From Eledone cirrhosa (taxonomy: Eukaryota), in contig OZ024740.1 of NCBI GenBank assembly GCA_964016885.1, positions 409,386,001 through 409,450,000 of the forward strand: DNA of 64,000 bases, read 5' to 3'. Positions 3,680 through 57,250 of the stretch are shown here, in pieces. The position numbers and the translations under genes were made by a program. The notes under the pieces were generated by a model, which was given only the letters and a program-made list of their open reading frames with translations, was not told the DNA's origin and did no database searches. Numbering within the stretch: the stretch's first letter is position 1; the number at the start of each line of letters is the position of its first letter.

Positions 3680-5670
3680 ATGGTAAATTTCTTTAAGTCG
3701 ATTGGAAGCCTCGACAATGCAGATGGGTAAATCTCCGGGTAACAAGATCCGGTGGTGGAGAGAGAGATAAAAGTGGGTGTACGTTTGAGATGCGTGGCGT
3801 GTATAAGACACCTCGGTCCCGGCACCTCGGTCCCGGTACTCCCGGCCGTCAATATACTGATGGAACGCGTCCAATCTACCGACCTACACTACTTCGGGCT
3901 CACCACCACTGACATCCACCAACTCCTATCCATCGTCGTCGACAACACCTTCGGATTCCTTGACCAAACATACCAACAAACCTCGGGACTGCCCATGGGA
4001 TCAAGCCTGTCGGGTGTGCTAGCGATCTCTTACATGGACAGCCTCGAGCGCAAGGCACTCAACGCCTGCCACCCCAACGCCGTCGCCTTTTTCTCAAGGT
4101 ACGTGGACGATATCCTCATCCTCACATCTTCCCAAGACAGGGCGAACAGAATCTATGAGACGTTCAACAACACGGACGAGAATATTGACTTCAGTATTGA
4201 ACACCCCAACGACGACAGGTCACTTGCCCTCCTCGACTTCCGAATCAACATCACGGAACAGGGAGGGATCCACTGCAACTTCTACCGAAAGGCAGCCTGC
4301 AGGGACCTGTTCGTCCACTACAAGTCCGCCCTCCCTAACAGTGCCAAAAGAGGATACATCACGAACGAGATCGCGCGAATCAAAAACAGATGCAGCGATC
4401 CCGCGAGTGGTGTCACTCATACCAAGCGATTCCTCGAGGTGAAGGAGACGAACGGGTACCTTACCTCGCTCACAGACAGAGTAGGAGACACCAGACACAA
4501 GAGACAGAGAGAGACCCAAGGCAAGTGCTTCCTTAAAATGCCACACCTGGGCGAGAATACCTCCAACGCTATCCGCAAGGCTATACGGAGGGAGGGCCTC
4601 GACATCCACCTGGCCCATTCGGGCCCCTCCCTGCGAAGATGCCTCTCCAGGAAACCCGGGAAATCAACTGACGCGTGCTCCCTCAGAGACTGCCCGATGC
4701 GCCATGCGAACTGTTGCCTACGCACATACGTCGTGTATAAGATAGAATGTAACAAGTGCAACCAATACTATATAGGTAGCACAATCCGGCCGTTGCACAT
4801 CCGGATCAAGGAACACACTAAAACCAGGGCCTCGTCTTTCCGGAAACACATAGCCAAATGCGGAAACAAAGACGGAAGGCCCATTGTCACAATTCTAGCG
4901 ACAGAAAGAAACGTCGGACGTTGCGTATCAAGGAAGCACTTTGGATCAAACGCCTAGGGCCACAACTAAACAACCGATCCGAGAGAAGAGAAATGAGGTG
5001 GTTGGTTTAAGTTAACAAACGATGCAGCAACACATGCACACACACACACAAGCGAGACAGCAACACACGCACACAGACACACACACACACTAGCATTCCA
5101 CCATACGAACATACTACACTGCCAATACAGAGGAACAAGGCAACAACACACGCACACACACACTCAAGCGAGACAACAACACACGCACACACACAGTAAC
5201 ATTCACCAAACAGGCAGAGAATGGACTGACAGCTAGCGCCACCTCCCTCCCACAATTGAAAGAACTACTTCGGCCGCTGACCTCTGCCTGACCGACCCCA
5301 TTTCACGCGCACGCGCGCTCTGCTGAATACCTCAGATATTCTAAACAAAGAACAGCGGAGGACACGTTTCGCACCTTTCCGACAGACAACCCCCCCCCCC
5401 CCCCCGGAAAAAATCCCAGTTGATGGATGTGAATCCGAAATATATAGGGACAATTAAATCTCTCCCAAGGTAACTCTTTCTAGTGTTGTTATTTTTATTT
5501 TTATCCTTTTCGATCTTTCCTTCATTCCTCTATACGTTACAGTCTTATACATGCCAGCATCACAACGTACACTTACTTACATCTCTCTCTCCACCACCGG
5601 ATCTTGTTACCCGGAGATTTACCCATCTGCATTGTCGAGGCTCCCAAACGACTTAAAAGAAATTTACCTT
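3680..5670 (+). mobile_element. 5'-truncated Penelope-like element with inverted partial pLTR at its 5' end
   Basis: RT+GIY-YIG ORF; 3681-3795 is the reverse complement of about 5557-5669; degenerate HHR-like motif at 5414-5450 (ggatgtgaatcc-GAAA-tata-TA-ggga). Confidence 0.9.
3752..4957 (+). pseudogene. PLE reverse transcriptase (C-terminal half) + GIY-YIG endonuclease
   Basis: QTSGLPMGS, RYVDDI, LALLD RT motifs; VVYKIECNKCNQYYIGST..RIKEH GIY-YIG; C-terminal frameshift. Confidence 0.9.
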
Positions 5671-5749
5671 ATTATTCCACAATGTTTCAAGCAAACTTCA
5701 ATACTCTCTTTGATATATATATATATATATATATATATATATATATATA

Positions 5750-7208
5750 TATTTATTAAAATAACAGATTAAAGTTTAAGCAAAGAATCGCTGCTTTCAC
5801 CCTTAACGGGATCTTCTGAAACTAACAAAGTCAATCTGTAAACGCAGAACTGGATATTTCAAAAAACGTTGCAACCGGAGGAAGACAGGAAGACGATACT
5901 TTGGTTCATGGTGACGTTCGCTGGCAAAGAACGGGAAAAAACGAATAATACGTCATTAATAGGAGCGGTGAAAAACAATTACGCGCAAAGACAGAACCAC
6001 GTTTATGGTATAAAAGAGTTCGTAGACTAATGTTCTCTAAGTGGTGCATAGAGACGTTCTCTGGCAATGAACGAAAAAACGAAGATAATAAGTCATATGT
6101 GGAGCCTGGAGAACACTAGCACGCAAAGACAAAACCACGTAAATGGTATAGCAGAAGTTGTAGACTAAAATTCTAACTAGGAGACCGAATGAATCTCCGC
6201 TACAGAGTTAAGAACAAAGTAAATAAATACAATACAGAAGTAATAGAAACAAATAAATACATACACGCAAACAGATACGTACATACACAAGCATACGCAA
6301 AACCTTACCATAGGTATACAAAACCACGCACATATAAATATGTGTATGTGTGTATGCTTGTGTACAAATAAATAAATAATTATATAAACGTATATAAGTA
6401 AATAAATACGTATATAACAAGCGCACGCACACTAAAACAAGAAGTACACATATACACACACCCACCATACGTACGAACCTGCATACTCACGCAGACGCAA
6501 AACTCTCATATACACATAACCAAACCCTAAATACCAGAATATGTAAAAATTATACGCCATAACAGTCAAATATACGTACGAGAAGGTATACATATCTTCA
6601 CAAAACATACGGGTAATATATACTTACCTATGCAAATAAGTAAAGGAATAAACAAAACATATACTTATCTCCCACATCAAGACGTAAAATATCCACGTAT
6701 AGATCGTGCTATCCGTTAGGGTATAACGTGGGGCTGTAATACAGGAAAGTTTTGTGCAATTTATGTTTACAAGCCGAAATTGCCTCAGATTTTTTGTTTA
6801 AGATGTGGTCTGTGGCGTAGAGTATTTCCAGGGCCTCAGCGGCGCAGAGGTCACAAGGTCTTTTATTTCCGTTATACGATCTAGCCCTAGCTAGGATCTC
6901 CCAGTGTAACTTATATTGGGTGTGGTTGTCTTTTAGACTCCAGATATAAGCTGAAAGTGACGTCATATTCCTTCTTAGAGGGTAACGAAAAGAATGGTTA
7001 TGCATGTAAAGACGCTGCTTGAATCTATTGGCAGTTAACCCTATGTAGGCCCTACGGGACGTGGGTGTTTCAACCTTACATTTGTAGACAATGTTACTAG
7101 AGAGGCATTTCCCGGATAGGGGGCAATCAACCCGATTCCTACAATTACAGTTAGTACTAACTACAGGGTTGCACGTGTTCCTACGGCTAGGTAGTTTAGC
7201 TAAATTAT
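5750..7208 (-). mobile_element. Naiad-type PLE 3' fragment (GIY-YIG + about 950 bp pLTR); same family as 31097-34730
   Basis: CNCRNRVDCPLSGKC..IVYKC..YIGLT..CDLC; near-identical to 31097-32790. Confidence 0.85.
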
Positions 7209-55700: not shown

Positions 55701-55935
55701 AATAACTTGTGTGTTACACCTCTATTCTTTTAACTATATATATATATATATATATATATTTATATATATATATATATTTATATATATATATATATATAAA
55801 TATATATATATATATATATATATATTTATATATATATATATATTTATATATATATATATATATTTATATATATATATATATATTTATATATATATATATA
55901 TATATTTATATATATATATATATTTATATATATAT

Positions 55936-57250
55936 ATGTAAGTATGCATGTATACGTACATACATATATGTATACAGACGTACAGTAGCATGCATATATA
56001 TATATATACATATATATATATATATATATATATATATATATATATATATATATATATATATATATATATATATATATATATATATATATATATATATATA
56101 TATACATATATGCATACAGGTACACATACATATATGCACGTATCAGTTTAGCGGACGCTTATTATAACGCCGCTTTGTTCGTTTGTAAACAAACTGAACA
56201 GCCTGAATTTATGCCATACGGTGTTAAGGCAACCACGTCACCTTTTTGTTCAACACTGATACAGGAACGATGTACTAGTTTCAAGCTTGTTAGCTATCAT
56301 CAGCACCGTTTACCCATCTGCCAGATAGTTGAACGTTCGAAAGTATATACTTTCCTTATGAAAATTAACGGCTGAGCAGCCTAATTTGCATATTGAGTGA
56401 GTTAAATCGGTCAGGCATACCGAAAACGATAAATTGAAATAAAATGAAAACGAAATTTCATTTCTCACTCTTAGTATGGCACTTACTTAAATGTAAGTAT
56501 GCATGTATATGTACATACATATATGTATACAGACGTACAGTAGCATGCATATATATATATATATATATATATATATATATATACATATATATACATATAT
56601 GCATACAGGTACACATACATATATGCACGTATCAGTTTAGCGGACGCTTATTATAACGCCGCTTTGTTCGTTTGTAAACAAACTGAACAGCCTGAATTTA
56701 TGCCATACGGTGTTAAGGCAACCACGTCACCTTTTTGTTCAACACTGACACAGGAACGATGTACTAGTTTCAAGCTTGTTAGCTATCATCAGCACCGTTT
56801 ACCCATCTGCCAGATAGTTGAACGTTCGAAAGTATATACTTTCCTTCGAACGTTCAACTATCTGGCAGATGGGTAAACGGTGCTGATGATAGCTAACAAG
56901 CTTGAAACTAGTACATCGTTCCTGTGTCAGTGTTGAACAAAAAGGTGACGTGGTTGCCTTTACACCGTATGGCATAAATTCAGGCTGTTCAGTTTGTTTA
57001 CAAACGAACAAAGCGGCGTTATAATAAGCGTCCGCTAAACTGATACGTGCATATATGTATGTGTACCTGTATGCATATATGTATATATATGTATATATAT
57101 ATATATATATATATATATATATATATATATATGCATGCTACTGTACGTCTGTATACATATAAGTATGTACGTATACATGCATACTTACATTTAAGTAAGT
57201 GCCATACTAAGAGTGAGAAATGAAATTTCGTTTTCATTTTATTTCAATTT
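55936..57250. mobile_element. Retrozyme-like array (about 489-bp units incl. internal (TA)n) with fold-back; HHRs at 56266-56310 and 56755-56799 (minus) and 56876-56920 (plus)
   Basis: aacggtg-CTGATGA-tagctaacaagctt-GAAA-ctag-TA-catcgtt; ATTTGCAT at 56384-56391; inversion at about 56845. Confidence 0.9.

Follow-up and report, generated by a model that had tools for sequence, protein, structure and literature searches.

Animal non-LTR retrozymes, as described by Cervera and de la Pena (2020, PMC7229834), are dispersed and non-coding; their tandem units measure a few hundred bp, every unit has a type I hammerhead core, and PLEs were proposed as their mobiliser in the same work. PLE mobilisation was also claimed in a 2026 preprint by Li, Clavereau and Pollet from co-occurrence and pLTR homology (bioRxiv 10.64898/2026.07.22.740005); in the available text of that preprint the words "tail" and "junction" are absent and "inverted" occurs once, in a reference. 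As far as these two sources go, neither the enzyme nor the template of animal retrozyme insertion was settled in 2020, and the case made in 2026 was indirect. A PLE protein, predicted to be a dimer, was shown in vitro to cleave and extend both strands, with synthesis beginning at two sites inside the RNA by which the genomic tail is defined (Frangieh et al. 2024, PMC11167929). These start sites are placed downstream of the hammerhead in EN+ PLEs (PMC11167929), the genomic copies of which are described with an inverted 5'-truncated arm, a one-sided tail and (TA)n targeting (Craig et al. 2021, PMC8557442; PMC11167929). Chlamys PLEs such as MRC1 include non-autonomous, multicopy head-to-tail elements with PLE structure (PMC8557442).

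In this study, we analysed a stretch of 64,000 nt from Eledone cirrhosa (contig OZ024740.1), here called the window, together with samples of related loci from the same genome. The retrozyme arrays and PLE copies of the window are listed below by position, with clade names assigned from motifs.

3682..5712, plus strand: 5'-truncated PLE; RT end and C-terminal GIY-YIG with CCHH, without CX2-5CxxC linker
5753..7205, minus strand: second copy of the Hydra-A family, truncated; 3' end tail-less, in (TA)n
29334..29664, minus strand: small insertion with two arms, from the 437/489 retrozyme group; hammerhead core 29597
31098..34729, minus strand: Hydra-clade PLE (Hydra-A), near full length; ORF broken
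34743..35622, minus strand: array A, 437-bp family, 1.9 units, local period 428; hammerhead cores 35049 and 35477
38671..41453, minus strand: truncated copy of the PLE4 family; CX4CxxC linker and CCHH
47013..47196, no strand: small remnant with two arms, related to the tail region of PLE4; TA lies between it and array B
47260..47941, minus strand: inverted arm of array B, 467-bp family; hammerhead core 47522
47929..49228, plus strand: long arm of array B, 2.8 units; hammerhead cores 47964, 48431 and 48898
49229..49772, no strand: (TA)n target common to array B and the Hydra-B element
49778..53127, minus strand: Hydra-clade PLE (Hydra-B), truncated; CxCX5C linker
53723..55734, plus strand: Neptune-type PLE, 5'-truncated; CX4CxxC linker and CCHH
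55938..56846, minus strand: long arm of array C, 489-bp family; hammerhead cores 56303 and 56792
56828..57249, plus strand: second arm of array C; hammerhead core 56883

The arrays belong to three homologous, non-coding families with units of 467, 437 and 489 bp, for which 665, 1640 and 331 candidate loci, respectively, were found in a first look at the genome as dispersed head-to-tail units. A hammerhead core motif is present in each unit of the window arrays, with stems I and II predicted to fold, and the hammerheads that an earlier note on this DNA saw in arrays A, B and C were confirmed, with cores at the positions given above. An Rfam match (HH9) was obtained for the 467-bp family only, with 38 bits and E 4e-6, under the gathering score of 52. 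Apart from TA-repeat frames, no ORF of at least 120 aa was found in the window arrays; PLE protein matches inside them were absent, as was an RT and GIY-YIG ORF, so they are not autonomous PLEs. Being non-coding and free of LTR, PBS and PPT, like the described animal retrozymes, the arrays are likely animal non-LTR retrozymes with a predicted self-cleaving hammerhead motif. Cleavage and RNA circles have been shown for retrozymes of other species. The whole monomer stays colinear in the three diverged families, which suggests a long independent existence.

Among the PLEs, the element at 3682-5712 is Penelope/Poseidon-like by motif. PLE4, which is Neptune/Nematis-type by motif, is a young family with many 1217-aa open frames at other genome loci. 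The elements at 31098-34729 and 49778-53127 had been called Naiad, a label ruled out by domain order and motifs: Naiad was defined by an N-terminal GIY-YIG with CX2-5CxxC and CCHH, and we found GIY-YIG at about residue 602 of 713, after YxDD at 350, with both motifs absent and a GIY-YIG core devoid of the cysteine pair. By the same kind of evidence both are assigned to the Hydra clade, for which a C-terminal GIY-YIG without CCHH, a CxCX5C linker and a DKT motif were used as criteria; CxCX5C is present in Hydra-A and Hydra-B, and DKT in Hydra-A, that region being absent from the Hydra-B fragment. An intact pLTR hammerhead core was found in one Hydra-B copy elsewhere (L127) and a degenerate one in the window copy, while motif scanning gave no core for Hydra-A.

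The earlier note had also read four PLE copies as 5'-truncated, capped by an inverted copy of their own pLTR and sitting in (TA)n. Inverted pairs and TA ends stand in all four, with identities of 91% (3683-3809/5542-5667), 90% (34467/34726), 100% (49778-50081/52658-52961) and 98% (53723-53889/55528-55694), and (TA)n is present at the ends of the window PLEs. The pLTR cap does not hold for the pair at 34462/34730, where the long arm still has its start codon together with the upstream tail, and the inverted piece corresponds to the tail, about 100 nt long. In this Hydra-A element, which is interrupted by another repeat at 32199-32375, the tail-less long arm ends at 31098 and the tail is the inverted short arm 34626-34729. 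The Hydra-B long arm is likewise tail-less at 49778, with a tail of about 165 nt on the inverted arm 52658-53127. In the Penelope/Poseidon-like copy a short inverted arm (3682-3809) lacks the tail of about 43 nt found at 5670-5712, and in the Neptune-type copy the inverted arm 53723-53889 is tail-less and a 33-40 nt tail ends at 55734. The ORF-bearing arm is the tail-less one in two of these four PLEs.

Retrozyme insertions have the same architecture. They consist of two head-to-head arms with variable 5' ends and with 3' ends at two fixed sites, A and B, which lie 57-70 nt apart and align across the 467, 437 and 489 families. The tail has a predicted hairpin, and site B is followed by a conserved motif. 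In array B, the inverted arm ends at site A (unit position ~400) and runs into TA, the long arm ends at site B (unit position ~469) with a 68-nt tail (49161-49228), and the inversion junction displays 13 nt of microhomology. In array C, the site-A end of the long arm runs into TA, the second arm ends at site B (tail about 57184-57249), and the junction is a 19-nt palindromic overlap. The small insertion at 29334-29664 has a minus arm ending at site A and a 62-nt plus arm (29603-29664) whose end is at site B, and another site-B fragment, separate from it, is found at 28450-28555. The inverted ends, absence of poly(A) and (TA)n flanks noted earlier for the arrays are borne out; at array A (34743-35622), though, a site-B end runs into TA on a single side and the inverted arm is a stub of about 45 nt (35577-35622) that stops short. 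The lack of a clear TSD, also noted, is put down to the TA target; at rare non-TA insertion sites elsewhere duplications of 9-14 nt were found, some of them bracketing two-arm insertions.

The footprint was quantified on the 40 best-scoring candidates per search, a choice that favours young copies containing a complete unit. In the 467-bp family (best 40 of 665 candidate loci), 67 of 76 arm 3' ends fall at a fixed site, 31 at A and 36 at B, and TA follows 61 of the 67. Poly(A) was found at none of the 76 ends, and the LINE-type tails that would have spoken against PLE insertion were thus not seen. When insertions whose two outer ends each fall at a fixed site were scored, one A and one B end were found in 24/26 (467), 12/14 (437) and 13/14 (489), that is 49 of 54 over three families, the remaining five being A/A or B/B. 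Thirteen of 39 insertions of the 467-bp family, with a single arm or a broken second arm, were set aside, as were 15 loci of the 437 sample and 14 of the 489 sample without two callable outer ends, L057 (junction and flanks identical to those of L056) and the ambiguous L080 and L178. The same rule was obeyed by autonomous PLE families of Eledone: Hydra-B (9/11), Neptune-type (11/11) and PLE4 (6/6).

Unit differences per 400 nt are 1.40 within an arm, 1.45 between opposite arms and 4.93 between loci, and variants private to a locus are present on both arms, which indicates one haplotype per locus. Of 30 junctions, 19 have no inserted bases, and in these microhomology averages 2.5 nt, against 0.73 at random. 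Fold-back of one cDNA is ruled out for 5 of 23 simple pairs, in which each arm extends beyond the other, and it would not yield different ends. Truncation of 5' ends at the hammerhead cut site was rejected as well, with no clear enrichment at the predicted cleavage site, which follows unit position 168 (2/60 at 164-176, p=0.50; 8/60 at 160-190, p=0.04).

The arrays thus carry the inverted 5'-truncated arm, one-sided tail and (TA)n target of EN+ PLEs, and their sites A and B resemble the two internal RT start sites of the latter (PMC11167929). Unlike the EN+ PLEs described there, they are without RT and endonuclease, their tails are of 57-70 rather than 30-40 nt, and their arms are multimeric, built from a short unit. 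Like Chlamys elements such as MRC1 (PMC8557442), they are non-autonomous, multicopy and head-to-tail, with PLE structure; canonical hammerheads are reported as undetected in most Chlamys elements, whereas the arrays here carry them.

We consider it probable that the arrays were inserted in trans by PLE RT and GIY-YIG, and that the broken PLEs adjoining them share the (TA)n target only. Retrozyme RNA would self-cleave and may circularise, the template being an RNA circle or an uncut multimer. PLE protein would nick both target strands with a stagger of 9-14 nt; priming inside the RNA would take place at site A from one strand and at site B from the other. The length of each cDNA would vary, often spanning several hammerhead sites, and the two cDNA ends would be joined through microhomology or a few inserted bases. 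That PLEs mobilise retrozymes has been proposed before; what is added here is the junction and footprint evidence, which supports PLEs directly from the genome and pinpoints the proposed start sites on each of three related RNAs. The near-strict A/B pairing supports two-strand, two-site PLE priming in vivo. Full-length open frames are kept at other loci by three PLE families, PLE4 (1217 aa), Hydra-A (713 aa) and Neptune-type (784 aa), and with the start sites pinpointed and these intact candidate enzymes present in Eledone itself the proposal is testable by the existing in vitro assay.

The argument differs from that of the 2026 preprint, as its text presents it, in resting on the insertion footprint; pLTR homology to five PLE families was not found. 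Monomers compared with the non-coding regions and tails of these families gave scores within the shuffle range, and they showed no similarity to three other hammerhead-bearing ends. Tail lengths gave no exact match either (33-40, 43, 45-58, ~90-100 and ~165 nt in the PLEs measured). The arrays match none of the PLEs compared, while Chlamys non-autonomous PLEs are described as generally matching an autonomous partner at the 3' end (PMC8557442).

The origin of the monomers admits two readings, each of which we hold as possible but doubtful. They may be detached terminal repeats of another autonomous PLE family, internal-deletion derivatives mobilised by their parent, which is compatible with insertion in trans by PLE proteins and differs from it in origin only. 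According to the preprint, 24 of 57 Xenopus retrozyme families share homology with known elements, which are PLE termini in nearly all cases (bioRxiv 10.64898/2026.07.22.740005), and first-look PLE protein candidates in Eledone number in the thousands, of which five families were compared. Against detached repeats speak the dissimilarity to those five and the colinearity of the whole monomer; moreover, a PLE ORF remnant was found in 21 of 97 sampled array loci, and where its distance was measured, in 12 paired loci of the 467-bp family, it lies 200-3666 bp away from the array. Tentatively, the retrozymes might instead be free-standing circular RNA parasites, structural mimics of the PLE two-site priming signal and not PLE fragments. 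A PLE dimer would then prime both nicked strands at A and B of one circle and go on copying around it, and each two-arm array would be the fossil trace of rolling-circle reverse transcription from two primers.

The earlier note had taken co-location as evidence of a helper. Three of the four array insertions of the window do abut a PLE through TA, and the three adjacencies were recovered, across gaps of 13, 569 and 196 bp that are mostly TA. If the adjoining copies were functional partners, co-inserted or co-transcribed with the arrays, PLEs should be enriched there, and they are not. PLE ORF remnants occur in 12/37 array windows and 9/37 paired control windows (p=0.61; L044 and L069, on short contigs without a paired control, left out). 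Under a strict rule, which missed one of the three window cases, 2/56 array ends abut a PLE against 24/864 controls; under a looser rule recovering all three, 11/131 array ends do so against 28/476 ordinary TA-tract sides (p=0.31). This is the outcome that the earlier note had named as refuting its inference from co-location. PLE4 accounts for 7 of these 11 cases (7/131 array ends, 11/476 control sides), and Hydra-B abuts none of the 131. The three neighbours belong to three different families, each with its own complete end pair, and all are truncated or broken, so they cannot supply protein. A local helper is therefore largely refuted and we regard it as very improbable. Neighbourhood is uninformative on the partner in a genome this rich in TA tracts and PLEs; trans mobilisation, as the earlier note proposed it, is well supported by the two-site tail geometry instead.

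It is slightly less probable still that the arrays arose by LINE-driven, SINE-like retroposition with twin priming or by satellite amplification through unequal crossover. The 9-14 nt duplications are compatible with LINE-type insertion; the poly(A)-free ends, two fixed internal ends and systematic inversion are not expected of it, and the pattern is absent from a SINE control (abutting inverted copy in 4/121 copies, TA flank in 7/121). The arms also overlap in sequence and site-B arms seldom start near site A, contrary to twin priming on one template. The long arm of L049 alternates 467- and 480-bp units and its short arm is without the latter, which fits local expansion after insertion and led us to reject the alternation as proof of a dimer circle; amplification as a whole is contradicted by dispersed loci, each with its own junction. 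That the inversions are fold-back chimeras of long-read assembly is close to negligible, even though no short-read contig spans the whole array B junction stretch, since artefactual palindromes mirror the flank too, whereas the arm ends here are unequal, fixed and family-specific, the flanks differ per side and target duplications surround some two-arm insertions.

Rfam miRNA matches in the window were microsatellite noise, and ARAGORN found no tRNA genes in it. Three features of the window had escaped the earlier note: the fixed tail on one side, a fourth insertion of the array families (29334-29664) and a fifth PLE (38671-41453).

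The earlier note held that the retrozyme arrays share the insertion signature of Penelope-like elements (PLEs), and this is borne out. Its three hammerhead arrays, with monomer families of 437, 467 and 489 bp, were confirmed in the window, and self-comparison recovered all four inverted pairs that it named. For the 467-bp family, the best 40 of 665 candidates were scored, and roughly 10 kb was retrieved for each of the other 39 loci, L057 being removed as a duplicate of L056; samples of such best-scoring candidates are biased to young copies holding a whole unit. The 3' ends of 76 arms fall at site A (unit positions 395-404) in 31 cases, at site B (position 465 or beyond) in 36 and elsewhere in 9. 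TA follows 61 of the 67 fixed ends, and none of these 67 carries poly(A). Both outer ends were found at fixed sites in 26 of 39 insertions, and 24 of these 26 pair A with B, the exceptions being one A/A and one B/B. The same pairing was found in 12/14 and 13/14 insertions of the 437-bp and 489-bp families (29 loci each, one ambiguous locus per family set aside). Either of the two arms can be the longer, and insertions at non-TA sites (L046, L049, L093) are flanked by duplications of 9-14 nt. The two-arm, TA-flanked pattern is not generic, because a SINE-like control repeat from the same stretches rarely shows it (abutting inverted copy 4/121, TA flank 7/121). We regard the arrays as genuine, clean examples of retrozymes bearing a PLE footprint.

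In pairwise alignments the three monomers score 121-528, well beyond the shuffle maxima of 33-35; they are colinear and have both end sites in common. The arrays are non-coding. The 467-nt unit folds much better than shuffled versions (z -8.5) and contains a type I hammerhead core, whose stem III is short and palindromic; cleavage is predicted.

The window was drawn from an animal assembly of 3.0 Gb, and the following elements were recognized in it.

3682-5712: PLE with CCHH present and the CX4CxxC linker absent (clade by motif, no tree)
17356-21971: LINE, presumably L1/Tx1-like; an ORF1 fragment has a zinc knuckle, and the endonuclease-RT frame is 779 aa long (RVT_1, E 4e-24)
31098-34729: PLE, family Hydra-A
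38671-41453: PLE4, a fifth family missing from the earlier note
49778-53127: PLE, Hydra-B
53723-55734: Neptune-type PLE with a CX4CxxC linker and CCHH, features of Neptune/Nematis (clade by motif, no tree)

In each PLE copy of the window, two arms stand head to head, with a tail as the difference between their outer ends. Among copies with both ends visible, one arm stops before the tail and the other after it in 9/11 Hydra-B, 11/11 Neptune-type (both from 30 loci each) and 6/6 PLE4 copies. The pair 34462/34730, previously read as an inverted pLTR capping a 5'-truncated copy, represents the tail of this family together with an inverted copy of that tail; the element keeps its start codon. Hydra-A and Hydra-B had been labeled Naiads; both carry a C-terminal GIY-YIG, with a core lacking the cysteine pair and a CxCX5C linker, and DKT is present in a full-length Hydra-A copy, whereas Naiads have the endonuclease at the N-terminus. 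The features of Hydra-A and Hydra-B are those given for the Hydra clade in PMC8557442, and both elements are assigned to it by motif, without a tree. All PLE copies in the window are truncated or broken, and full-length open frames were found outside it for PLE4 (1217 aa), Hydra-A (713 aa) and Neptune-type (784 aa). A motif scan found no canonical hammerhead core in Neptune-type and Hydra-A. PLE4 (L259, 38671-41453) is very young, with a unit of 4117 bp and many full-length copies, tandem and inverted, and its frame has an asparagine-rich low-complexity insert ahead of the RT. In the Neptune-type family (L279, L286), the 784-aa frame is preceded by a second reading frame.

According to PMC11167929, a purified PLE protein cleaves and extends both target strands and starts at two internal positions of the RNA, the distance between them being the tail seen in the genome; the array footprint agrees with these two-strand, two-site starts. 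In 5 of 23 simple pairs each arm holds sequence that the other lacks, so both arms were templated separately. No insert is present at 19 of 30 junctions, with a mean microhomology of 2.5 nt versus 0.73 at random, and the other 11 hold 2-28 inserted bases. One haplotype per locus, private variants included, runs through all units of both arms; differences per 400 nt are 1.40 for units of the same arm, 1.45 for units of opposite arms and 4.93 for units of different loci. Both arms thus derive from a single RNA or a single source locus. Arms reach up to 12 units and span many hammerhead sites. This is compatible with the circular template put forward in PMC7229834, and also with an uncut multimer derived from a homogeneous source array or with later local expansion. 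In the long arm of L049 (G000:C5:62050216-62054679), units of 467 and 480 bp alternate together with an alternating variant, and the short arm keeps the variant order without the extra 13 nt, which suggests that local expansion after insertion can occur.

The proposal that the adjacent PLEs are the helpers is not supported. PLE ORF remnants occur in 12/37 array windows versus 9/37 paired windows at a distance of 1 Mb (p=0.61), making up 3.6% versus 3.3% of non-array bases. PLEs abut 11/131 array ends versus 28/476 sides of ordinary TA tracts (p=0.31), under a rule by which all three window adjacencies are recovered; the PLE library comprised the window's five families only, a bias towards the window. 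(TA)n tracts of at least 16 bp number about 12.5 per 10 kb in the window, a density comparable to that of control windows (median 9, mean 19.5). The monomers show no resemblance to non-coding regions or tails of the five families. PLE4 accounts for 7 of the 11 abutting cases at array ends, a lead only; it is also the commonest PLE neighbour of TA tracts. At L097 (inside one TA tract), L173, L189, L105, L140, L142 and L150, retrozymes of different families and PLE ends are close neighbours, consistent with shared targeting.

PLE mobilisation of animal retrozymes was proposed in PMC7229834 and is mentioned in PMC8969392. A 2026 preprint (bioRxiv 10.64898/2026.07.22.740005) claims it on two grounds, co-occurrence across 35 genomes and, in Xenopus, homology to pLTRs; tail or junction analysis is absent from its main text. 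We found no description of the two-site footprint in retrozymes in the literature searched, which covered few subscription journals. The present arrays add quantitative junction evidence to the published idea.

Other repeats were observed nearby. A separate 613-bp tandem non-coding repeat (41446-42257; also L044, L062, L089) terminates in (TA)n and stands head-to-head with a truncated PLE4 copy in the window. It is possibly another PLE-mobilised element; a motif scan found no canonical hammerhead core in it, nor does it resemble any of the three retrozyme families. An older hammerhead repeat at 670-930 (minus strand) shows weak homology to the 437 and 489 families (scores 55 and 65; shuffle maxima 33 and 30). 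Several short palindromes located between TA tracts resemble MITEs. At least the one at 47013-47196 is a remnant of a PLE end with two arms, and those at 46102-46211, 46590-46922 and 29907-30133 may be as well. Isolated hammerhead-like cores at 465, 1147, 16301, 36172, 38064 and 45247, several within short 3' remnants terminating at microsatellites, are likely ends of other PLE families.
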